Origin: Candidatus Parcubacteria bacterium
GTDB taxonomy: Bacteria > Patescibacteriota > Minisyncoccia > UBA6257 > 2-01-FULL-56-20
Direction of reading: 5' to 3'
Length of the DNA stretch: 39,671 bases
Assembly (NCBI GenBank): GCA_041169145.1
Contig: JBEEJO010000003.1
Location: 1-39,671, forward strand
Shown here: one piece after another, positions 5-31,234 of the stretch
Layout of the letters: the number at the start of each line of letters is the position of its first letter
Numbering within the stretch: position 1 is the first letter of the stretch
The notes under the pieces: generated by a model
Databases searched by the model: none
The model's input: only the letters and a program-made list of their open reading frames with translations
What the model was told of the DNA's origin: nothing
Program-made: the position numbers and the translations under genes

Positions 5-5326
<5,322 letters not shown>

Positions 5327-18957: not shown

Positions 18958-19554
18958 ATGTACAATCGTATCCGGGGTGCGGCGGCCGGTTTCACGCTCA
19001 TTGAGCTCCTTATCGTTATCGGCATTATTGTTATCTTGTCCGTTGTCGTTATCCTAACCCTGAATCCGGCGCAGCTTCTTGCGCAATCGCGGGATTCCCG
19101 GCGCGTAAGCGATCTGGCTGCATTGCAAAGCGCGATTTCGCTGTATCTTGCCGATGCGACCTCTCCAAGTATTGTGAGCAGCTCTTCGCCATGGCGGTGC
19201 TATTACAACGGCTCCGGTTTTCCGGCGGGAGGCGCGAATGCATGCGGCGGGCGTTTCTCCAACTCACAGACGAGCCATGCGAGTACGACCCTCGGTGTGA
19301 GCGGAGGCGGCTGGGTACCAATAGACTTCACGGTCGTCAGCTCGGGCGCTCCGCTATCCAATCTCCCGGTTGATCCCGTGAACGATTCCACCCACTTCAT
19401 GGCGTATACAGGCTCAAGTTCTTTGGTGTATGAGATCAATGTTTCGCTGGAGAGCACAAAATATACGACGGGCGCTGGAAGTTTGCTCATCAGTGACGGC
19501 GGAAGCAGCTCAACGCTCTACGAAGTTGGAACAAAATCCGGCCTGGATCTTTGA
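18958..19554 (+). CDS. Type IV major pilin-like protein
   Basis: Class III signal G|FTLIELLIVI, RDSRRVSDL helix; own promoter TGGTATACT (~18886) and strong terminator. Confidence 0.92.
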   Translation: MYNRIRGAAAGFTLIELLIVIGIIVILSVVVILTLNPAQLLAQSRDSRRVSDLAALQSAISLYLADATSPSIVSSSSPWRCYYNGSGFPAGGANACGGRFSNSQTSHASTTLGVSGGGWVPIDFTVVSSGAPLSNLPVDPVNDSTHFMAYTGSSSLVYEINVSLESTKYTTGAGSLLISDGGSSSTLYEVGTKSGLDL

Positions 19555-19576
19555 TCGTCCGCGCATCCCGACGTTG

Positions 19577-19607
19577 GCGCCCCCGGCTTTGCCGGGGGCG
19601 TTTTGTT
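19577..19607 (+). terminator. Intrinsic terminator after the pilin
   Basis: CGCCCCCGGC-TTT-GCCGGGGGCG-TTTTGTT. Confidence 0.8.
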
Positions 19608-19644
19608 GCCGGGGCTGATATAATAAGGAGGCGCACCCCTACCC

Positions 19645-21360
19645 ATGAGCCTCTTTATCCCTCCCCAACAGTTGCGGACCATCTTGGTCCAACAGAATGT
19701 CATAACGCCGGAGCGATTCGATGAGCTCTTAGTCGTATCGGAGCGGAAGGGCCAGAATCTTATCGATCTCTTAGTTTCCGAACGCATCGCTGACGCCAAG
19801 TTTCTGAGCTCGCTCATCGCGAGCACATTCGGCGTTGAGCTGGCAAATCTGGGCATGCGCCAGATAGACGAGTCAGTGCTCAAGATCTTGCCGGAGCAGC
19901 TTGCACGCCAGCGGCAAGTCATCCTTTTCGGTCGAGAGGCCGATGGTACGTATCAGGCGGCTATGGCCGATCCGGGCAATCTGGAGACCATCGAGTTCCT
20001 CCAACAGCGCCTTGATGGGCGAATCAAGCCGTATCTTGCGATCGCCGACGATCTGAACCGCGGATTCTCGGTCTACGGATTCCGCTCCACGGAGGATTTC
20101 AAACATATTATCGAGGCGAATATCGCAGAGTCATTGGTGAGCCAAGCGAAATCGTCCGAGGAAGCCGCGGCAGATCTCCCGATCGTTGCCATCGTGGACA
20201 ATATCTTGTCCTACGCGCTTGCGCTTCGTGCTTCGGATATTCACATCGAGACACTCGAGGACTCGATGCTTATCCGTTATCGGGTGGACGGCATCCTTTC
20301 GGAGATCGCGAGGATCCCGAAAGCCGTTCTTGGAGCCATCGTCGCTCGGGTAAAGATACTTTCCGGGTTGAAGCTCGATGAACACTATAAGCCCCAGGAC
20401 GGCCGGTTTCGGTACCAAGTGGTGAACGATACCGTGGATGTGCGCGTGTCCGTCATGCCGACGTATTACGGGGAGAAAGTGGAAATGCGACTCCTGGAGT
20501 CTTCCCAGAAACCCCTATCGCTCGCCGAATTGGGGATCTTGGATGCGGATGCGGCGGTGGTCATGGAGGCCACGAAAAAAACGTTCGGCATGATCATCGT
20601 TTGCGGTCCGACCGGTTCCGGAAAAACGACCACGCTCTACGGGCTGATGAATATTTTGAACCGCCCCGAAGTGAATATTTGCTCCGTTGAGGACCCTATA
20701 GAATACAACATGCGTTATGTGAACCAATCGCAGATCAATCCGCAGGCGGGCATCACGTTCGCCACCGGCCTGCGGGCGCTGCTCCGCCAGGATCCGAATA
20801 TCATCATGGTCGGCGAGATCCGCGACAACGAGACCGCCGGCATCGCGGTCCAGGCGGCGCTCACGGGCCACTTGCTGCTTTCCTCGCTGCACACGAACGA
20901 CGCTCCAACCGCCATTCCGCGGCTTTTCGATCTGGATATTCCGCCATTCCTCGTATCGTCGACTCTGAATATCATCATTGCGCAACGCCTTGTCCGGAGG
21001 ATCTGTTCCTCGTGCATTACATCGTTTCCCGCGAGCGCCGAAGCTCAAGTCACCATACGCGAGCAGCTCCGCTCCATCGGCGCGAGTGACGCACCCGACC
21101 AGATACCGACGGTGTTCTATCGGGGGACCGGATGCGGCTCATGCGGCGGGACCGGATATCACGGCCGCCTCGGCATCTTCGAGATCATCGCAATGAACGA
21201 TGCGCTGCGGCGCGTCATCGTGGAGCCGCAGTTCGATTTTGAAACGCTCCGTCGCGTCGCCCGCGCGAACGGGACGCGGCTGATGTTCGAGGACGGAATC
21301 GTCAAGGTCCAGCTTGGTATCACGACCATCGAAGAAGTGATGCGGGTCATTAAAGAGTAG
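19645..21360 (+). CDS. pilB: Type IV pilus assembly ATPase PilB/GspE
   Basis: ASDIHIE, PQDGR, Walker A GPTGSGKTTT, EDPIE, LRQDP.IIMVGEIRD, tetracysteine motif. Confidence 0.95.
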   Translation: MSLFIPPQQLRTILVQQNVITPERFDELLVVSERKGQNLIDLLVSERIADAKFLSSLIASTFGVELANLGMRQIDESVLKILPEQLARQRQVILFGREADGTYQAAMADPGNLETIEFLQQRLDGRIKPYLAIADDLNRGFSVYGFRSTEDFKHIIEANIAESLVSQAKSSEEAAADLPIVAIVDNILSYALALRASDIHIETLEDSMLIRYRVDGILSEIARIPKAVLGAIVARVKILSGLKLDEHYKPQDGRFRYQVVNDTVDVRVSVMPTYYGEKVEMRLLESSQKPLSLAELGILDADAAVVMEATKKTFGMIIVCGPTGSGKTTTLYGLMNILNRPEVNICSVEDPIEYNMRYVNQSQINPQAGITFATGLRALLRQDPNIIMVGEIRDNETAGIAVQAALTGHLLLSSLHTNDAPTAIPRLFDLDIPPFLVSSTLNIIIAQRLVRRICSSCITSFPASAEAQVTIREQLRSIGASDAPDQIPTVFYRGTGCGSCGGTGYHGRLGIFEIIAMNDALRRVIVEPQFDFETLRRVARANGTRLMFEDGIVKVQLGITTIEEVMRVIKE

Positions 21361-21480
21361 TCGCGGGTGCGAGTTGCCCGTTTTGAATACTTGCACGGGG
21401 CGCAGGAGGAAACGACCGGGAAGCCGCTGGGGCGGGAAACTGATATAATTCTTAGGCGCTAAGAGCCAGAACTTCGACAT

Positions 21481-22686
21481 ATGCTGTATCACTACACTGC
21501 CGCCGATAAGACCGGGAAGATCATAGAAGCCGACCTGGACGCGGAGAACGTTAATCAGGTCCTTCAGCATCTTTCGGGACGCGAGTTGCGGCCGGTGAAT
21601 GTCCGCCCGGTTGGCGGAAGGGCGCGATCGTTCCGCGGCATCTTCGGGGGTGTGTCCACGGCAGACAAAGTGTTTCTTACCCGTTATCTGTCGCTCATGC
21701 TTCGGGTCGGTACGGATCTGCTGTCAGCTATTAATATTTTGATCGCGGATTTTGACAAGCCGGCGGTCAAAAGCATTCTCTTGGAGATCCGCGACAACCT
21801 GAGCAAGGGCCGGCCGTTCTATGAAACATTTTCGCGGTATCCGAAATATTTTTCGCCCGTATTCGTCAATCTCGTGAAAGCGGCGGAAGCATCCGGTAGC
21901 CTGCAGAAAACATTCGACGATCTGAGCACGTCCCTTCAGCGCGAAGTGGAGCTCAGGAACCGTATCCGATCGGCATTCATCTACCCGATCATCCTCGTCA
22001 TCGTCGCATTCGTGGTCGTGTTCTTCCTCGTTTCTTTCGCCATCCCGAAGATCGCGAAGGTCTTCCAGGACAGCGGAATACAACCGCCCATCTTCTCACG
22101 GATCGTATTCAGCGCCGGATTATTCATGAACGATCACGCTGTCGTCATCATCCTGGGGTTGGTGGTCGCTCTTATCGGCGGGTGGATCTTTTTTGGCAGA
22201 AACGACGTCGGCCGGCGTCTGCTCGCGCGCGGCATCACTCATATTCCTGTCCTGAGCGGTTTGTATCGCGAGATCGCCATCCAGCAATTTGCGACGACGT
22301 TCAGCGCGCTCATGCGGGCCGGCCTTCCTATTATCCAAACGACAAAGATCACCGCTGAAGTCGTGAACGCGCAGGAGTTCAGCGATAGTTTGCGGCGCAT
22401 CGCCGACGAAGGCCTTGCAAAGGGACTTACGATCGGCGAAGCGTTCCGTCGCGAGACCGTGTTCCCGCGGGTCGTCACGAATCTGATCTCCATTTCCGAA
22501 AAAGCGGGGCATCTCGCCGACGTTCTGGATACGCTTGCGGATTTCTATACATCCAATATCGATGCCAAGGTCCGCGCGCTCGTTTCTGTTATTGAGCCGG
22601 CCCTTTTGCTCGTTATGGGCATCGTCGTTGGGACGATCGCACTTGCCATTATCGTGCCCGTGTACCAGCTCACATCCCAATTCTAG
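21481..22686 (+). CDS. pilC: Type IV pilus platform protein PilC/GspF
   Basis: Two T2SSF repeats (AAEASGSL; ISEKAGHL), YP and IEP motifs, three TM segments. Confidence 0.93.
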   Translation: MLYHYTAADKTGKIIEADLDAENVNQVLQHLSGRELRPVNVRPVGGRARSFRGIFGGVSTADKVFLTRYLSLMLRVGTDLLSAINILIADFDKPAVKSILLEIRDNLSKGRPFYETFSRYPKYFSPVFVNLVKAAEASGSLQKTFDDLSTSLQREVELRNRIRSAFIYPIILVIVAFVVVFFLVSFAIPKIAKVFQDSGIQPPIFSRIVFSAGLFMNDHAVVIILGLVVALIGGWIFFGRNDVGRRLLARGITHIPVLSGLYREIAIQQFATTFSALMRAGLPIIQTTKITAEVVNAQEFSDSLRRIADEGLAKGLTIGEAFRRETVFPRVVTNLISISEKAGHLADVLDTLADFYTSNIDAKVRALVSVIEPALLLVMGIVVGTIALAIIVPVYQLTSQF

Positions 22687-22692
22687 GCGCTC

Positions 22693-23208
22693 ATGAAGCC
22701 AGCTGTATCTCTCGCTCGGCGCGGCACAACCATCATAGAATTGGCGATCGCGATGGGTATTATGGTGCTTCTGAGCGTGCTGGTCATTCTGTCGCTTTCC
22801 GGATGGCGGAACCGGGCCGGTCTTGACTCCGCGACGAAACAGATCACCGTGCTCTTGCGCGAAGCGCAGAGCCGATCCATGACCCGTGCATCTGGCGTTG
22901 CGTGGGGAGTGCATTTTGACAATACGGCAAGTTCCACGCCATTTTACGCGCTTTTCTCCGTTTCATATTCTACGTCGACCGCGCAGAAGCGGACACTTTT
23001 GCCTACCGGCGTCCACTTTTCCAATACCAGCGTGCCAGAGGGTACGTCATTGAATATCACGTTCGCCGAACTGACCGGCATACCGTCAACTTCGACCGTT
23101 ATCATGTTGGAATTCGGCGGATCTGGCGGCGGAGGCGGGGCGGCAAGTATAAGCCGCGCGGCGAGCGGGCTCTTATTCTTCGACGATTTCAATCGAGCGA
23201 GCCTATAG
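22693..23208 (+). CDS. Minor pilin (FimT/GspH-like), C-terminus apparently incomplete
   Basis: RRG|TTIIELAIAM prepilin motif, LREAQSRS..WGVHF, ITF..LTG. Confidence 0.85.
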   Translation: MKPAVSLARRGTTIIELAIAMGIMVLLSVLVILSLSGWRNRAGLDSATKQITVLLREAQSRSMTRASGVAWGVHFDNTASSTPFYALFSVSYSTSTAQKRTLLPTGVHFSNTSVPEGTSLNITFAELTGIPSTSTVIMLEFGGSGGGGGAASISRAASGLLFFDDFNRASL

Positions 23209-23272
23209 GAGCACCAGAGAACATGATACGCATGAACATTCTTTCTCCACACACCCAGCATTGCATCCGATT

Positions 23273-26200
23273 ATGACGCAACAGAGAACACCCGAAAGAA
23301 CAACGAGAAGTGTCCCGTACGCCGCGAGGGAGAGCCGCGGGGCATTGCTCGCGCATTCGTTCCTGGCTATTGTGGCGATCGTTGCCATTCTCATCGTCGC
23401 CGGCATGAACTTCGACGCGGTCTCCTATGACGCTTCGCTCCAGGGCAACTTGCGAAAAGAGTTATTCATGACCGCTTTCGGGGCAACGACGCAGGTCACC
23501 ACGTCCACTCTCACCTCCGGCGGGATCGATTCACCGACGTCAACAACATGCACCACCAATTCCATTACGCCGAGCGCGAATAAGCTCGTCCTCCTTGCGA
23601 TCGGGAGGAGAGGAACGGGCACCGTGACATCCGTTACGGGCAATGGCCTCACCTGGGTTCAGGTCGCGGACCAATTCGATGGCAACGGCAGCGGGAACAA
23701 TGGTGTCGTACTATTCCGTGCGATGGGATCAAGCCCGACGACGGGTTCGGTCACGATGACGTTCAGCGCGGCGCAATCCCGCTGCAACTGGTCAATCACG
23801 GAGTTGGGCAATGTGGATACCTCGGGAACGAACGGTTCCGGAGCGATCGTACAGTACGCGACGAGCAGCCATACGGGTGGCACCACGATCTCTACGACGC
23901 TCAGCACGTTCAGTTCGTCATCCAATATCGCGTATGGCGTCGTGGTCAATGGGAACAGTACGTCATCGGTAGGAAGCGGATTTGGACAGCTTCATCTTGT
24001 GACGACCGGAACGAGCACGACAGCGATCCATCTTTTGACGGAGGCGGGGCCGCCCGCATCGTCTACCACAAATTGGTACGACCCCTCCTGGGGCTATCGC
24101 AAAAAGATCACCATCGACCATACGAAAGTATCGTCAACCCTCGCATACTTCCCGGTCCTCGTGTCGGTGACCACCTCAACAACGTTCAAGACCACGGGGA
24201 ATGGGGGCCACGTTGAGCAGGCGGACGGGGGAGACTTCGTCTTCACTTCCTCGGACGGCACGACGAAGCTCGATCATGAGATCGACGAGTACTCGTCGAG
24301 TACGGGCCGGTTCATCGCTTGGGTAAAAACTCCCTCGCTCTCCTCGGCAGCCGATACCGACCTCTACGTTTACTACGGGAACGCAAGCGCCGCGAATCAA
24401 TGGAACGCCACAAGTACATGGAACGAGAACGGTACTCAGACCTTCCGGGGTGTCTGGCATCTCAATGAAGCATCCGGCAAGGTTTTAGACTCCACGATAT
24501 ATAACACGAGCGGTACGCTCACCGGAACACCGACGCCGCGTTCCTCCGGCACCGTCGGCTACGGGTACAACTTCAATTCAGCGAGCGAATGGGTGGATTT
24601 CGGCGATCCAAGCGACGGCCACCTCGACTTTGGCAGTACGAGCAGTGTCTCAGTGAGCATTTGGGCGAAGATACAAACGGACAACGGCGATTGGCAGATG
24701 CCCGTCACGAAGGGAGGATTTGACGACTCCCCATATCATCGCAACGGCTATGACATCGAGTTCGACACCAATGCGTCGCCGTCGCAAGTCTACGGCGACA
24801 GCTTTGACGGAAGCACGATGATCCCATCGTCCATATACAATCCCTCGATCAATACCTGGTATTACGTCGTCGCGGTCATCGATCGGGCAAGCAGCAAGTA
24901 CCGCCTCTATGTGAACGGCGTTCAGATAGGCTCCGGATCGAATATCAGCACTCTGGGCAATATCAACTCGACGGAGACCCTAACCTTCTCCGACATGACG
25001 ACCGATGGCGGCAATGACCAATTCTTCGGTTGGCTGGACGAGGTGCGCATCGCGTCAACGAACCGGTCCGGCGGCTGGATCGCGACCGAGTATGCGAACC
25101 AGTCATCGCCGTCAACGTTCGAGACGTTCAACGCGGAAGAGGTGCCTACAGGAGGAGCGCTTATCAGCGCGAATCTGGGAACGGGCAGCGCCGCGGCCAT
25201 CATCGGTCTGGAGGTCAAGTATGCGGCGGCTGCCGCCGGCGACACCACGCCCCCGACAGTTTCTCTCACCGCTCCCTCGGACGGCGCGACCGTTTCGAGC
25301 ACCGTCTCCCTTCAGGCGACCGCATCCGACGATGTGGCTGTTGTTGGCGTCCAATTCAAAGTGGATTCCTCGGACATTGGATCCGAAGATACGACCGCTC
25401 CATACAGTGCGTCCTGGGATAGTACGCTCGTCGCCAATGGCTCCCACTCGCTCTCGGCTGTGGCGAGGGACGCCGCCGGGAACCAAGGGTCGTCCACGAT
25501 CTCGGTCGTTGTGTCGAATGGCAGTGGTCCGTGGACTGCCGATCTGGGCAGCTGGAGCATTTCCGGCAACGCGCTCACGAACGCACCCGCCGCCGCGGCC
25601 TATGACCAAGTGCATGTGTCGGGGCTCAGCGTCACCGATGCGGTCATCGATGTGCGCGTCAAGGCGAGCATCCTTTCGGGCGGCAACGCGGGATCCGTTC
25701 TGCGTTCCGATGCGGGCGCGAACCGTTACCAGATCGGAAACTTGGATTTTGCGAACGCTTTGCACCGGATACGCAAAGTGGTTGCGTCCGTTGCAACAGT
25801 CCTTACAAGCACTGCGTATTCGCCGAGCGCGGGTACGTACTACCAGTTGCGCGCATCGCTTTCGGGAACATCGCTTCAGTCATGGATAAACGGCGGGACG
25901 GCGCTCTCAACGACCGATTCATCGCTCAGCTCAGCCGGGTTCATCGGGCTCGGATCGAATCGGTCCGGTTCCGCCGTCACCTTTACCTATGATGATTTCG
26001 CCGCATATACCGGCTCCACGATAACGCTCAATAACTTGCCTGCCGGCGGGTCGTGGTCCGTACTGAACTCCGCGTCCGCGATCATTTCATGCCGCACCGG
26101 CAGTACGTGGGACTCCTCAACCTATAACGGTCAGATCCCCATTGATTATGCCGCTGGCGGCGGAAAGATCGCCGTGTGGGGGACGAACAACACGTGCTCC

Positions 26201-26359
26201 GGCGGAGCTGACGTCACCTATCCCTCGAGCGGACTTGCGACCGATATCTTCGGCGGTGATACGTATACCTATACCGCCGGGGGGACGGGGACCCCGGCGA
26301 CCCCGGCGACCGCAACATCAAGCATCACGATCAGCGCCGGCGGCCTTATCAGCTATTGA
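23273..26359 (+). CDS. Large pilus-associated mosaic adhesin (DUF2341-like + LamG/concanavalin-like + bacterial Ig-like)
   Basis: N-terminal hydrophobic segment after RESRG; WYDPSWGYRKKITID..WVK.P.LS..YVYYGN; GVWHLNE..DEVRI; DTTPPTVSLTAP..ARDAAGN; very S/T/G-rich. Confidence 0.85.
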   Translation: MTQQRTPERTTRSVPYAARESRGALLAHSFLAIVAIVAILIVAGMNFDAVSYDASLQGNLRKELFMTAFGATTQVTTSTLTSGGIDSPTSTTCTTNSITPSANKLVLLAIGRRGTGTVTSVTGNGLTWVQVADQFDGNGSGNNGVVLFRAMGSSPTTGSVTMTFSAAQSRCNWSITELGNVDTSGTNGSGAIVQYATSSHTGGTTISTTLSTFSSSSNIAYGVVVNGNSTSSVGSGFGQLHLVTTGTSTTAIHLLTEAGPPASSTTNWYDPSWGYRKKITIDHTKVSSTLAYFPVLVSVTTSTTFKTTGNGGHVEQADGGDFVFTSSDGTTKLDHEIDEYSSSTGRFIAWVKTPSLSSAADTDLYVYYGNASAANQWNATSTWNENGTQTFRGVWHLNEASGKVLDSTIYNTSGTLTGTPTPRSSGTVGYGYNFNSASEWVDFGDPSDGHLDFGSTSSVSVSIWAKIQTDNGDWQMPVTKGGFDDSPYHRNGYDIEFDTNASPSQVYGDSFDGSTMIPSSIYNPSINTWYYVVAVIDRASSKYRLYVNGVQIGSGSNISTLGNINSTETLTFSDMTTDGGNDQFFGWLDEVRIASTNRSGGWIATEYANQSSPSTFETFNAEEVPTGGALISANLGTGSAAAIIGLEVKYAAAAAGDTTPPTVSLTAPSDGATVSSTVSLQATASDDVAVVGVQFKVDSSDIGSEDTTAPYSASWDSTLVANGSHSLSAVARDAAGNQGSSTISVVVSNGSGPWTADLGSWSISGNALTNAPAAAAYDQVHVSGLSVTDAVIDVRVKASILSGGNAGSVLRSDAGANRYQIGNLDFANALHRIRKVVASVATVLTSTAYSPSAGTYYQLRASLSGTSLQSWINGGTALSTTDSSLSSAGFIGLGSNRSGSAVTFTYDDFAAYTGSTITLNNLPAGGSWSVLNSASAIISCRTGSTWDSSTYNGQIPIDYAAGGGKIAVWGTNNTCSGGADVTYPSSGLATDIFGGDTYTYTAGGTGTPATPATATSSITISAGGLISY

Positions 26360-26395
26360 GACATCACTGTGCGCCGCATGGTTGGTCTGACGTGA

Positions 26396-26413
26396 GATGG
26401 TACAATAGGAAGG
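26396..26413 (+). promoter_or_regulatory. Extended -10 promoter, duplicated at 29223-29240
   Basis: GATGGTACAATAGGAAGG immediately before the start codon at both sites. Confidence 0.7.
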
Positions 26414-27085
26414 ATGAACGGGCAGGGAGGAGAGAATGAACGGCCGGACCGCATGACGTTGCGTGCCGTGTTGGCGTCCGACATACGACGAGGCCAGTCG
26501 CTTGTCGAGGTACTTATCGCCATAGCGGTCGGTATCATCATGGTCATCGGCGCCATCACTGCGATCGTACCGGCGTTGCGCAACCAGGGAGGCACCGTGC
26601 GCTTGCAGGTCGCTGTGGGGCTCGGGAAGGAGTTGATGGATACGACCCGCGTTTTTGCGGAGTCGGACTGGCATAATATTTCAGCGCTCAGCACAAGCTC
26701 CGCATCGCATTACTACCTGAACAGCACCAGTTCTCCGTTCTCGGTTCGCGCCGGCGATGAGAGCGTTGTTGTCGGTACGACTACGTATGTCCGGTATTTT
26801 TCGGTCGATGAAGTATGGCGTGACAGCAACGGTATGATCGTATCGAGCGGCGGTACGCTTGATCCCTCAACGCGCAAGGTGACGGTTGCGTACAGCTGGA
26901 TTGGTCGCCCGACATCCAGCATGGTCACGTACTTCACGCGTTCCCGGAGCTACTCCTATGTCCAAACGGATTGGTCCGGCGGTTCCGGACAGGAAGGGCC
27001 GCTTACGACGGTGAACAACAAGTATGCTTCGTCAACGGGAATAGACGCTATGACAACACCCGGTTCCATGCAAATAGATTTTTGA
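26414..27085 (+). CDS. Minor pilin (PilV-like)
   Basis: RRG|QSLVEVLIAI prepilin motif, DPSTRKVTV.YSW. Confidence 0.85.
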   Translation: MNGQGGENERPDRMTLRAVLASDIRRGQSLVEVLIAIAVGIIMVIGAITAIVPALRNQGGTVRLQVAVGLGKELMDTTRVFAESDWHNISALSTSSASHYYLNSTSSPFSVRAGDESVVVGTTTYVRYFSVDEVWRDSNGMIVSSGGTLDPSTRKVTVAYSWIGRPTSSMVTYFTRSRSYSYVQTDWSGGSGQEGPLTTVNNKYASSTGIDAMTTPGSMQIDF

Positions 27086-27087
27086 CC

Positions 27088-29157
27088 ATGACCAGACGCC
27101 AGTTCATTCCTTTATTGCTCGCCGTGTGCGCGGTCCTTGCCATCGGTGCGTCGTTCTGGGGGCCGCCGCTCATCTGGGCCGATGCGCCTGCGAATGTTGA
27201 TCAAGTTCATTATCGATGGCGGAACGACGATGGAAGCGAATCGACCGCGACGTTCCAGGGTGCCGTGGATGCTGCGCGTCCGGTGCTGAAAAGCACGCCT
27301 CTTCGCCTTAGGTTCGAGGTTTCGAATGACGGCGGAAGCTCGTCAACCGTGCCGTTCATCAAGCAGGTCCAGCGCGGTTCCGTTGCTATGGATTGGGGAG
27401 ACGAACAAGCGAGCGTAACGCTTTCACCGCGCATGGATCCGTCTCGGACCATCGTGTGGGGCGGTATGATGCAGGGCGGCGGCCGCGGTCCGCTCTCCGA
27501 TCCGAACGTGACCAGGGTTGGGTTTGATCTCATAAGTTCCAGCACGATCAGGTTCAATCGTCTCAATACTCCGGAAGAGCAGGTCGTTGTGGACTGGCAG
27601 GCGGTGGAATTCTACGATGGGGCGCGAGTTCAGCGCGGCACGGCAATCCTCGGGAATTCGGATACGGACATGAACGTCACGATCCCTGCGGCGGTCGATC
27701 TTAGTCAGGCCTTTGTGCTCGCATCGGTTACGACGGATGCTTGTTGTGGAACGGCAAGCCGCGCATACGATCGCCGTTGGGGTGCGCGCATTCGGCTCAC
27801 ATCGCCCACGAACCTTGAGATCTCCCGCACGGCCGGCGGGTCGCAGTTGTATGTGTATTGGCAGGTCGTTGAGATGGATGGCGTGACGGTTCAACGCGGA
27901 TTGACCTCGTTCTCGACCTCACAAGCCACGCTCACGTCGACCATCGCTGCGGTGAATGCGTCATCGAGTTTCCTTCTCTTTAACTGGCGATTCACCGATC
28001 CTACCGAAGCCGGTTTCGAGGGGCGATATATGACGCGTGGGCATGTACGGGATAACACCACTATTGAATTCAATCGTGAACGCAGCGGGTATGCGGAAGA
28101 CCTTTCCTGGGAGGTTGTGACCATGCGAAATGCAACCGTGATCCAGGGAAGCATCGCACAGACGCCCACCGAAACGGACGACGTCATCAATGTGACGCTT
28201 TCTCCGTCGGTGGATATGAATCGCACTTTTGTTTTCGTCTCCGACTCCGGAGGGTATTTGGACGAACAAAACCTCGATTCGACATCGTGGACGGGCCGGA
28301 TAACCAGCGGGTCGAACCTTCGACTTGAACGTTGGCAGGCCATTGACGTATTTGTGACCTCCACCGTGGATTGGCAGGTGGTTACGTTTTCCACCACCAC
28401 CCAGCGAATTGCGAGGATCATCCCTCAGTTGCAGTATGCGGCAAAAACCGCCGCTTGCAGCGCCACTGCCAGTTCAAGCTGGGTTGCGGTGCCGACGACG
28501 GTAACCACCCAGCATTGGCAGATGGTAGCTTCGTCAAATCTCACGGACAACGCCACGACCACGAACGTCTCGGTGGACGGGGGATTGCCCGACGAAGCCG
28601 CGTCGTTCGTGCCGGGGTACGTGAAAGAGGCGTCCAGTACGGCGCCGAAGATCACGTTCAGCTCCGACAGTTTTACGGAGATCGAATATTCGGTGCAAGC
28701 GACCACGAACGCCGTGAACAATCAGACCTATTGTTTCCGCCTCGTCGATGACAGTGCCGATCTGAACGCGTATACGGTATATCCCGAAGCGACGGTGGTC
28801 CTTACCATCGGGTCGGCTTCCAGTACGCTCATTTCCACCATTTTTGACACTCAAAGCGCGAGCGGCAGTGCTCTGAACAGTTTATTGTGGCAGGGCTCTC
28901 AGCCGGCCGATACGGGCGTGAAGTTCCAGCTTGCGGTATCGAGTGCGAGTTCCGGTCCGTGGAGTTTCAAGGGGCCGAGCTGTACGACGGATACGAACGA
29001 TGTGTATAACCCCGGCGCGCCCGGAACGGCGTTGAAGATCACGCCGTCATGCACATACGACTCCCGATATTTCCGGTATAAAGCCATCTTGGAGAGCGAC
29101 CTTGCGCAGTCGCAAACTCCTCGAGTGGACGACATTATCATAAACTGGAGTCCGTAA
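27088..29157 (+). CDS. Secreted mosaic adhesin-like protein with four ~85-aa repeats
   Basis: Signal peptide MTRRQFIPLLLAV...; four V(Q/I)(R/Q)G...W(Q/E)(A/V)V repeats; beta-rich C-terminal domain. Confidence 0.8.
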   Translation: MTRRQFIPLLLAVCAVLAIGASFWGPPLIWADAPANVDQVHYRWRNDDGSESTATFQGAVDAARPVLKSTPLRLRFEVSNDGGSSSTVPFIKQVQRGSVAMDWGDEQASVTLSPRMDPSRTIVWGGMMQGGGRGPLSDPNVTRVGFDLISSSTIRFNRLNTPEEQVVVDWQAVEFYDGARVQRGTAILGNSDTDMNVTIPAAVDLSQAFVLASVTTDACCGTASRAYDRRWGARIRLTSPTNLEISRTAGGSQLYVYWQVVEMDGVTVQRGLTSFSTSQATLTSTIAAVNASSSFLLFNWRFTDPTEAGFEGRYMTRGHVRDNTTIEFNRERSGYAEDLSWEVVTMRNATVIQGSIAQTPTETDDVINVTLSPSVDMNRTFVFVSDSGGYLDEQNLDSTSWTGRITSGSNLRLERWQAIDVFVTSTVDWQVVTFSTTTQRIARIIPQLQYAAKTAACSATASSSWVAVPTTVTTQHWQMVASSNLTDNATTTNVSVDGGLPDEAASFVPGYVKEASSTAPKITFSSDSFTEIEYSVQATTNAVNNQTYCFRLVDDSADLNAYTVYPEATVVLTIGSASSTLISTIFDTQSASGSALNSLLWQGSQPADTGVKFQLAVSSASSGPWSFKGPSCTTDTNDVYNPGAPGTALKITPSCTYDSRYFRYKAILESDLAQSQTPRVDDIIINWSP

Positions 29158-29222
29158 TATTCGGAGCGCAGAGCGTTGAAGCGCTATAGCGCTTGGCGCA
29201 TAGGAGGTACGGGCGATGCGCG

Positions 29223-29240
29223 GATGGTACAATAGGAAGG
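29223..29240 (+). promoter_or_regulatory. Extended -10 promoter, copy of 26396-26413
   Basis: 18-bp identity, followed by GTG 29241. Confidence 0.7.
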
Positions 29241-29705
29241 GTGAACAGACAGGGAGCAATGAATAAGCAGCCGGATCGCGCGGTGTCATGTGTCACGAAC
29301 GCATCGCACAGCTTGGTATCGGGGCAGGCGGCTCTCGTCACGTCGTTCCTGATCGGCCTCATCGTGCTTTTCGCAGGTATTACCATGAGTTTTCTTGCAA
29401 CAAGTTTTTTTCAATCAACGTACGGGTTCCAGATCTCGAGCCGAGCGAGCGCTGCGGCCGACGCCGGTGTTCGGGACGCGTTACTGCAGCTTACGCGCAA
29501 TAAGGATTTCAACCCCGGTACATACGGCATACAGCTTGATTCCGTGACTGCGACCGTAACGGTGACGCGCGATGTTCCGTCCGCTGGCCAGATCACGATC
29601 CTCGCGACGTCAACGGTACAAAGCTACGAGCAGCGCCTTCGCGCGGTCGTTTCCGTTTCCACATCAACCGGCCAAGTGGACCTTCTCTCATGGCAGACAC
29701 AATGA
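29241..29705 (+). CDS. Minor pilin (PilX-like)
   Basis: SG|QAALVTSFLIG hydrophobic N-terminus lacking E5, A..AADAGVRDAL..L motif. Confidence 0.75.
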   Translation: MNRQGAMNKQPDRAVSCVTNASHSLVSGQAALVTSFLIGLIVLFAGITMSFLATSFFQSTYGFQISSRASAAADAGVRDALLQLTRNKDFNPGTYGIQLDSVTATVTVTRDVPSAGQITILATSTVQSYEQRLRAVVSVSTSTGQVDLLSWQTQ

Positions 29706-31234
29706 AGTCGCGTTTTGTCATATGGTGGCGGAACCTGCTCACTTTCCTCCGGGTGCGTTCGACCATCGGCGGGTTGGAGATCGGCGACATCGCGCTTCGG
29801 TACACGTTGCTCGAAGGTTCATCGTGGCGTCTGCATAGCCTGCGGCTGCCCCCCGGTATTGTGGACGGCGGGGCCATTAAGGATTATCCGCAGTTCGTCG
29901 AGGCACTCAAAGCGCTCAAGGTCCAGATCCTTGGCGCTCCTGATGCCCGGAAGAGCCTGAACGTCGTGGTGTCTTTGAGCTCTATCAATGTCTATAGCCA
30001 GGTGTTCAGCCTACCGACCGTCGTCGGCGGCAATCTGGAAAAAGCCATTCAGCTCAATGTGCAGATGATATCTCCCGAAGATGCGACGAAGAGCTATGCG
30101 GGATGGCAGCTTGTGAGCGGCGGCGACAAATCGGTTCATCTTGAGGTGCTCTCGGCATTCATCAATAAGGCGGTGGTCGATGACGTAAAGCGGGCGCTCA
30201 AGGAGTCCGGTTTCATCGTGTACTCTTTGGAATCGCGCGCGCTTTCGCTTGCCCGGCTCATCAGGAAGTTGAGCGCCGGGTTCGATCCTGCGCGATCGTA
30301 CATTGCCATTAATGTTGACTCCAATGGCATCCAGTTCCTTATTGTTCGCCATGGACAGCTGTATTTCGAGTATTTCACCGCATGGCGGGACGTCGAGATG
30401 GAAGGACATCAGATATCGCAGAGCGCTTTGGAGGATGTCATCGTGCGCAATCTCCATCAGGTGCTGAACTTTTATACCGCTCACTGGACCGACCCAGCGC
30501 AGGAGATCATCGTATCTGCGGCGGCGGTCAACGACATCGTGGTGGGCGCGGTGCAAAAAACATCATCCGTTCCTGTCCGCGGATTGGTGCTCTCCGCGAT
30601 GCCTCAGCAAGTGGAGCCCGATTGGTATGTCGCCGTTGGGTGCGGCCTTCGGGGGCTCATTGCGCGTCGCGAAGACACCGATCTGAGCCTGCTCGGTACG
30701 AGCGCGCAGGATGAATTCCGCCGGTACCAGACGCTCGCATTCCTCCGTTTCTGGCGCGTGGTCGTCCCGATATCGTTATCCGTGCTCTTGGTCGCATTCA
30801 TCGGCGTGCAGTCATTCTTCCGATATCTGGACAGTCAACTTGCCGATCAGCTCGCGCGTGCCAGCACCGGACCCGACCAGCAGCTCATGCTTCGGAACCT
30901 TCGTGAACACATCGACGAATTCAATCATTTGGTCGCGAACATCGGGAAAGTTCGTCGGGGAACCCTTCATCTGTATGCGGTGTTCGAGGTGACCAAAGCC
31001 GTCTTCGACAAACGGGGAGCGACCATCGTGAGTTTCTCGTATCCCAGTTCCGATTCGCGGATACAGATCAACGCCCGGGCAAAATCCGAAGAGGATGTTA
31101 CGAACATTCAAAAAGACCTCAGCGGTACGCCGGGCTTCACGGATGTCGACATTCCCATATCCGCTGTCACCCCCGTTGCTCAGGGTTTTTCGTTCACGGT
31201 CAGTTTTTTGTACGCGTCTCCGAACACCGAGTAG
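29702..31234 (+). CDS. PilM-PilN fusion protein
   Basis: GGLEI.D..LR actin-like start, ESRALSLAR, VA.G..LRGL.....SLL, then TM, coiled coil and PilN-like domain; ATGA overlap. Confidence 0.75.
   Translation: MKSRFVIWWRNLLTFLRVRSTIGGLEIGDIALRYTLLEGSSWRLHSLRLPPGIVDGGAIKDYPQFVEALKALKVQILGAPDARKSLNVVVSLSSINVYSQVFSLPTVVGGNLEKAIQLNVQMISPEDATKSYAGWQLVSGGDKSVHLEVLSAFINKAVVDDVKRALKESGFIVYSLESRALSLARLIRKLSAGFDPARSYIAINVDSNGIQFLIVRHGQLYFEYFTAWRDVEMEGHQISQSALEDVIVRNLHQVLNFYTAHWTDPAQEIIVSAAAVNDIVVGAVQKTSSVPVRGLVLSAMPQQVEPDWYVAVGCGLRGLIARREDTDLSLLGTSAQDEFRRYQTLAFLRFWRVVVPISLSVLLVAFIGVQSFFRYLDSQLADQLARASTGPDQQLMLRNLREHIDEFNHLVANIGKVRRGTLHLYAVFEVTKAVFDKRGATIVSFSYPSSDSRIQINARAKSEEDVTNIQKDLSGTPGFTDVDIPISAVTPVAQGFSFTVSFLYASPNTE

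Follow-up and report, generated by a model that had tools for sequence, protein, structure and literature searches.

The window described here is the whole 39,671-nt stretch, read on the forward strand, of contig JBEEJO010000003.1 (C3; assembly GCA_041169145.1) from a Candidatus Parcubacteria bacterium with a genome of 814 kb. The region at 22693-31234 sits in a type IV pilus locus, and its first two genes, which encode a minor pilin and a large adhesin-like secreted protein (adhesin 1), are the subject of this analysis. Their features are as follows.

22693..23208, + strand: minor pilin of FimT/FimU/GspH fold, 171 aa, with a prepilin-type N-terminus (G, then E at +5) and without the family's terminal beta-hairpin
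23149..23163, + strand: first strand of the pilin tail, residues 153-157, with the last strand of the small second domain of the adhesin as its predicted partner
23167..23205, + strand: second strand and end of the pilin tail, residues 159-171, predicted to serve as strand 1 of the CBM66-like sandwich
23261..26359, + strand: adhesin-like secreted protein 1, 1032 aa, with a TTG start (the ATG at 23273 is an alternative)
23360..23404, + strand: hydrophobic stretch of the export signal, residues 34-48, with a cleavage site less clear than in relatives
24224..24991, + strand: passenger, DUF2341 then a LamG/ConA-like domain, which varies among relatives
25253..25459, + strand: passenger, Big_7 Ig domain, by domain match
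25526..26011, + strand: CBM66-like beta-sandwich without its first strand (4b1l, E 1.6e-6; 4b1m, Z 24.2)
26012..26275, + strand: small second beta domain of the module without its first strand, fold not named
26312..26356, + strand: pilin-fold terminal beta-hairpin on the adhesin, by matrix match and complex model (residues 1:259-277)

The pilin open reading frame (ORF), 22693-23208, terminates past a Gly linker in ...LLFFDDFNRASL*. The adhesin ORF, 23261-26359, encodes the Big_7 Ig domain at residues 665-733, continues with GPWTADLGSWSISGNAL at 25526 and ends in SSITISAGGLISY*. The initial annotation of this DNA had described a stop after the linker and a resumption at ~25526 after an Ig-like domain, and both the motifs and the stops proved accurate. 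Structure searches with the pilin model returned EpsH, FimU, GspH and FimT as the top four matches (Z 9.4 to 7.3; next row Z 5.1), with a Z of 9.4 and a root-mean-square deviation (rmsd) of 2.5 over 104 aligned residues for EpsH, and a Z of 8.6 and an rmsd of 2.9 over 114 residues for FimU. The match of the pilin to TIGR01708 (GspH) is weak (E 0.002, under the curated cut-off), and a Pfam scan of it gave no match. G11 and E16 (G-1 and E5) are invariant in 12/12 split pilins, and the +1 residue is Thr, the usual one being Phe.

The best-conserved part of the pilin is its 19-residue tail, which ends at a fixed residue and has the consensus R-x-x-SG-x-x-FFD[DN]F-x-R-x-x-L-stop. Across the split pilins the mean pairwise identity is 0.70 in the tail, 0.50 in the head and 0.24 in the linker. 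Nine tail residues are invariant, the last residue is identical in 12/12, and the codon differences within the tail comprise 436 synonymous and 298 non-synonymous changes.

The last 277 residues of adhesin 1 (the module) were made into a profile, and a search of 1.84 billion representatives with it yielded both adhesin-type proteins and distant ones; 165 proteins were examined. In 121 of these the match begins near the domain start with room upstream, and among them the first-strand motif is present in cis in 0/30 adhesin-type proteins versus 51/91 others (two of the 91 being adhesin fragments). Six unrelated proteins match both module domains and start with the tail, for example R-T-x-x-G-K-L-F-F-D, in a single chain; they were found via the adhesin half alone, but were excised using a tail-like motif. 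A profile of these six modules places pilin tail residues 151-170 on positions 2-21 and adhesin residues 758-1006 on positions 30-279 (E 2.5e-33). Its best match falls in the tail for 10/12 split pilins (7.3-18.4 bits), and 23 unsplit pilins score at most 2.2 bits. When pilin and adhesin are joined in script, the product aligns across the junction with 6/6 single-chain modules and the bit scores rise, for example from 79 to 99. The sandwich superimposes on CBM66 4b1m with a Z of 24.2 and an rmsd of 1.4 over 152 residues at 19% identity (4b1l, E 1.6e-6); the small second domain had no usable ESM Atlas match, and the structure search was dominated by the sandwich. On sequence grounds, the pilin tail is homologous to the beginning of a module of two domains that other proteins carry in one chain. 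The earlier proposal that a domain begun in the pilin is finished in the next gene is thus borne out by the six-module profile and the conserved split.

The exchange also seems to run the other way. In unsplit pilin relatives the chain closes with a hairpin, S-S-T-I-x-[VI]-x-S-S-G-x-V-x-[YF], and the last 15 residues of adhesin 1 carry it. A scoring matrix built from the last hairpins of 23 unsplit pilins, with 183 interior windows as the null (maximum 2.0 bits), gives a mean of 16.6 bits for 21 adhesin C-termini, 20.7 bits for the unsplit pilins in leave-one-out scoring and 0.7 bits for the 12 split-pilin tails. Because the adhesin ends score 16.6 and the tails 0.7, it is the adhesin that carries the pilin hairpin, the tail being at best a faint look-alike; the FimT/GspH-like character earlier ascribed to the final strand of the adhesin agrees with this. 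At the -4 position of the hairpin, V/I stands in 22/23 unsplit pilins and R in 12/12 tails. The adhesin end of L079, which is one residue short, scores -13.9. The hairpin is retained on adhesins with unrelated middles. Among the longer homologues, 5/10 are one-chain pilins in which a domain precedes the last hairpin as an insert, and two have a propeller inserted in the same loop as here.

It had also been suggested to ask whether each protein folds completely alone. In single-chain models, which rest on small alignments (12 rows for the pilin and 21 for the module), pilin residues 156-171 and module residues 253-277 fall below 50 in the predicted local distance difference test (pLDDT), so that both chains have an end that is not confidently folded. 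The model of the pilin-module complex, in contrast to its controls, reaches an interaction prediction score from aligned errors (ipSAE) of 0.93 (best of three controls, 0.00); three runs share at least 89% of contacts, with a partner pLDDT of at least 78. In the predicted contacts, pilin 159-164 runs antiparallel to module 157-162, pilin 153-157 pairs with module 246-249, and the pilin helix (40-59) and sheet (110-143) are touched by module 259-277. These are the three contacts expected from homology, the tail-to-module ones being the most confident, and the predicted completion of sheets between chains favours the strand complementation that the initial annotation had envisaged. The score speaks for two halves that still fit each other, not for binding in the cell.

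The pairing of the two genes recurs in related bacteria. Seventeen loci with the adhesin module were fetched, and in each of the 12 where the upstream gene is visible (one a duplicate) this gene is a tailed pilin; among the remaining five, four are cut and one (L090) has a different large ORF upstream. The same split occurs in 11 other distinct loci, and all three stop codons are found among them and this locus. The gap between pilin and adhesin ranges from -4 to 737 nt, 7/12 loci are out of frame, and unrelated ORFs intervene between the two genes in 5 loci. Such varied gaps, the use of all three stops and the intervening ORFs exclude readthrough and frameshifting, and an assembly error is excluded because 11 other distinct loci share the split, with all three stop codons. 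A contig from one sequencing run, which may be the source sample, spans 21957-23893, including the pilin stop and the adhesin start, with zero differences. Among 125 family genomes the module was found in 11, the tail pattern in 10, both in 9 and neither in 113, and the tail pattern reversed as a control had 0 matches. A contig edge cuts the locus in G124 and G077, which explains their single matches, and in G102 tail and adhesin have both diverged, as a pair. Tail and module co-occur among these genomes with no true exception. Since 114/125 genomes have no module match, the module is not a general requirement of pilus assembly.

In four loci a similar small membrane-anchored protein (~190-200 aa, judged by eye) is encoded between the split pilin and the adhesin, at the following positions.

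L078:3301-3918, small membrane-anchored protein between the two genes, by eye
L083:5105-5692, the same
L091:908-1477, the same
L112:3433-4029, the same

It could conceivably be a chaperone or accessory protein; no chaperone gene was identified for the pilin-adhesin pair.

Adhesins with the same conserved end range from ~600 to 2200 aa and contain FN3, LamG, DUF2341, Ig and other domains. The middle of adhesin 1 had no BLAST match in L075 (PilC 89% identical) or L084 (pilin 80% identical), the relatives closest to it, and is covered to 64% by L078 and to 54% by L081. The domain preceding the module is Big_7 in adhesin 1 and another domain in 29/30 adhesin-type rows listed. Passenger domains differ even between close relatives, in line with the swappable adhesins proposed earlier. 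A hydrophobic signal stretch is found in 12/12 adhesins and an A-x-A-type site, judged by eye, in 11/12. The Pfam label 'Clostridium neurotoxin receptor binding' on adhesin 1 was rejected as a 52-residue LamG-fold cross-hit, not a toxin.

Sequence comparison points to three domains that are split between the pilin and adhesin 1, both genes being intact and kept as a pair, an anatomy that we regard as solid. The initial annotation had assumed a single split domain; the split is real, but the arrangement is more elaborate, with three nested domains and a second split pair (described below). The pilin and the adhesin are two halves of these three nested domains and are probably locked together by reciprocal beta-strand exchange, so that the variable domains of the adhesin would be carried on the pilus. 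In the predicted interaction, pilin residues 159-164 would complete the CBM66-like sandwich and residues 153-157 the small domain, and the last hairpin of the adhesin would complete the pilin head. We infer display on the pilus and host binding: the adhesin would be exported by Sec and would encounter the membrane-held prepilin outside, the pair could then be built into the filament near its tip, and the conserved adhesin end would act as a dock for exchangeable passengers that bind host or surface glycans.

Several observations weigh against such an interlock. Even when the donated strand is missing, the sandwich has a confident model (pLDDT 78-95 over module 1-160), so this strand may not be needed for folding; the monomer model has a low-confidence strand at pilin residues 150-154; and the tail itself is weakly hairpin-like, its mean of 0.7 bits lying at the top of the null. 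Split-gene halves pass the complex test easily because whole folds are familiar, and the mark for the complex score, reached by 116/157 solved complexes and 2/215 mismatched pairs, is only a rough calibration here, because our own alignments were used and the halves resemble whole folds. The family genomes, being kin, do not count as independent, and most of the positives were among the sequences from which the tail pattern was built. In L088 (9-6158) the gene after an adhesin with module and hairpin encodes an unsplit FimT-like pilin, possibly because there are two FimT copies or because this is a real exception; the sequence examined for L088 and L090 shows no split pilin. Adhesin 1 has no clear A-x-A site in its signal, compared with one in 11/11 relatives checked, and might therefore stay membrane-anchored.

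The hairpin-like tail, the strand at 150-154, the sandwich modelled without the tail and the fact that solved pilins align to about residue 157-161 of the pilin model would all suit a one-way docking as in PilY1, in which only the adhesin hairpin inserts and the pilin tail is a placeholder, folded back until the adhesin arrives. We consider this improbable, as the tail invariants (R, SG, FFD, F, R) match the single-chain module and not the hairpin, the tails have R at the V/I position -4, and the most confident contacts of the complex are those of the tail with the module; a placeholder role of the tail before docking is compatible with the reciprocal interlock. The unclear cleavage site bears on a different reading, in which the interlocked pair is a cell-surface adhesin and the pilin remains a membrane anchor that does not enter the filament. 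A perhaps uncleaved signal and the Thr instead of Phe at +1 are in keeping with it, as is the bulk of a dock on a FimT/FimU-class pilin, a class modelled at the base of the tip complex in other bacteria (PMC13190605). This is about as improbable, however, since in nearly all relatives, whether split or unsplit, the gene follows pilC in the normal FimT-like position, G-1 and E5 are kept in 12/12, and in single-chain relatives this pilin bears large domains.

A relic of an old insertion, with each protein working alone and the matching ends as leftovers, would explain why the trait is patchy (11/125 genomes) and most relatives are without it, but it is hard to reconcile with a tail that is better conserved than the rest of the pilin and has a fixed end residue, with a hairpin kept on adhesins with unrelated middles, and with the co-divergence of tail and module in G102; we hold it to be very unlikely. 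Least credible, to a degree that it can practically be dismissed, is a single protein made by readthrough, frameshift or DNA excision, or feigned by an assembly error. The first start of the adhesin is in frame with the pilin in 5/12 loci, and a depth-2 contig joins 23144 to 25635; against this stand the gaps, stop codons and intervening ORFs described above, the hydrophobic signal that every adhesin has of its own and an insert without flanking repeats, and the joint is supported by 27 letters of Gly-linker sequence, the contig having a loose end that is foreign. Excision in the manner of a shufflon was likewise rejected, no repeats having been found that flank the ends of the 2.3-kb middle and the sole joint lying in that contig, which was judged foreign.

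The second split pair follows directly downstream.

26414..27085, + strand: PilV-like minor pilin, with a second split domain that starts in its tail, from ~26963
27088..29157, + strand: adhesin-like secreted protein 2, 689 aa, whose last 115 aa (28810-29154) supply the rest of that split domain

A Q-T-D-W-S-G-G tail closes the PilV-like pilin, and a conserved piece of 115 aa closes adhesin 2. Seven further loci that do not show both parts were left out of the count; in the 32 relatives that do, the genes are split in 23 and form one ORF in 9. The one-ORF forms include direct joins (G056, G048, G053 and L091; also G102) and joins with an in-frame insert at the same point (G025, G027, G026 and G038), and in the split forms a new signal peptide marks the start of the second gene. 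Together, the PilV-like pilin and adhesin 2 are likely a second dock of a different fold. We propose tentatively, as a possibility somewhat short of even, that two neighbouring minor pilins have been turned into plug-and-socket docks, with passengers of 600-2200 aa exchangeable between lineages without touching the pilus.

Adhesin 2 also has, at residues ~87-461, an in-frame insert of ~375 aa within a domain that is continuous in the G001 homologue, apparently a cis domain insertion of the same style as the pilin-adhesin splits. In the PilV-like genes of L065, L069, L070, L071, L056 and L057, an in-frame insert of 190-390 aa follows about residue 120 of the head; PilV-like minor pilins thus seem to accept domain inserts at several loops.

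As to origin, the initial annotation had assumed that a ~2.3-kb adhesin module was inserted into one ancestral gene. An insertion of 2.3 kb in one step is unproven, as the exact join was not found. The search for contiguous homologues of the join had a divided outcome: the 6/6 modules aligned across the junction are contiguous, and none has a pilin head. No exact join of pilin, module and hairpin was seen, 0/165 module homologues carry the pilin head, 0/10 longer pilin homologues contain this module, and in the 125 family genomes 10/10 full-length module matches lie in separate long ORFs, with no fusion; this is weak evidence of absence, because the searches for longer forms scored only ~8000 candidates each. 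The present 2.3 kb is unlikely to be the original insert because the middles of close relatives differ, and an in-frame insertion followed by gene fission fits better because such a series is seen in the second pair. Join, insert and then fission is the likeliest history of the first pair too. On a PilC tree of 34 rows the split label requires 6 changes, at least 4 of them forced by strong branches (28/500 shuffles as low), and on a tree of 35 pilin cores it also requires 6, a single clade not being rejected (approximately unbiased test, p-AU 0.178). A single origin with losses and transfer cannot be told apart by these trees.

PilC/PilY1 adhesins dock on PilK-family pilins by a C-terminal strand, as genetics and biochemistry show (PMC12918778; for PilC/PilY1 tip adhesins on PilK/PilX see also PMC13190605 and PMC13711793), and GspK of the type II secretion system supplies the complementing strand itself (PMC12918778). 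The main text of PMC12918778 makes no mention of Patescibacteria or the candidate phyla radiation (CPR). As in PilC/PilY1, the adhesin here is a presumably exported non-pilin protein with a variable N-terminal and a conserved C-terminal part, and its extreme C-terminus would complete the sheet of a minor pilin, here by homology and prediction, with unsplit homologues supplying the strand in cis. In contrast to PilC/PilY1, the acceptor has a FimT/FimU/GspH fold and does not belong to the PilK/PilX family, a hairpin of ~15 residues is donated instead of one strand of 6-10 residues, the exchange is predicted to be reciprocal, with the pilin returning two strands, the conserved part consists of a CBM66-like sandwich and a small domain instead of a beta-propeller, and the system is optional within the family. 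Pfam and NCBIfam scans of adhesin 1 gave no PilY1/PilC family match.

Glycan-binding-type domains shown via a minor pilin are shared with Streptococcus sanguinis PilB/PilC, modular minor pilins with grafted lectin domains in which PilA-PilC stabilisation was modelled as strand complementation (PMC9934059), and with Nanosynbacter PilX1/PilX2, also minor pilins with grafted lectin domains (10.64898/2026.10.06.756255, PMC11623550). In these, as in the pilus adhesins known from Patescibacteria, which are minor pilins with lectin-like domains, pilin and adhesive domain form a single chain, whereas here the adhesive part is encoded by a gene of its own that includes an export signal. The sandwich has the fold of the CBM66 of Bacillus subtilis levanase (4b1m, 4b1l), a fructan binder, but at 19% identity, split over two chains and probably as a connector. 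Donor-strand exchange pili, including the CPR Pam pili, likewise gain a strong non-covalent link from the strand of another chain, but are chaperone-assisted Ig-like polymers (PMC13278184), whereas one heterodimer with a type IV pilin is predicted here. In the literature covered, which excluded supplements and subscription journals, we found no description of a reciprocal pilin-adhesin split, and we found no adhesin dock on a FimT-class pilin in print.

Type IV pili that have glycan-binding tips are foremost among the candidates for how Patescibacteria locate their hosts and stay attached to them, a question still largely open (10.64898/2026.10.06.756255, PMC11623550); their pilus adhesins bind glycans of the host wall (10.64898/2026.10.06.756255). 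If the proposal is true, passenger exchange would be a route to host-range change in uncultured episymbionts, and strand complementation at pilus tips would extend from the one-way PilY1-PilK case to a reciprocal, nested one in another pilin class. The pair amounts to a compact dock of 142 + 277 residues that could be expressed, with predictions down to single residues; this makes the question accessible in E. coli, with no need to grow the organism. It also gives a rule for finding pilus adhesins that family libraries miss, namely that the gene should end in whatever part the upstream pilin lacks, and a 19-residue tail that completes two domains could act as a natural protein tag.

The two pairs are flanked by further pilus genes.

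18958..22686, + strand: type IV pilus locus upstream of the split pilin, with pilA starting at 18958, pilB at 19645 and pilC at 21481
29193..31234, + strand: small PilX-like pilin and PilM/PilN-like gene downstream, the PilX label coming from gene order and N-terminus, with no family match

The GC content is level over the whole pilus locus. Close homologues come from records named Candidatus Liptonbacteria, Minisyncoccia and Patescibacteria, several further titles being Saccharibacteria. A direct repeat of 57 nt, 82% identical, lies at 26396-26452 and 29223-29279, before the PilV-like and PilX-like genes; it contains an extended -10-like TGGTACAAT, with similar sites 5' of pilB and pilC, which suggests internal promoters and a duplicated gene start. 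Near the start of the window, a 1773-aa ORF at 5-5326 comprises an apparent rpoB end and the entire rpoC, and by its motifs it appears to be a fused rpoBC.

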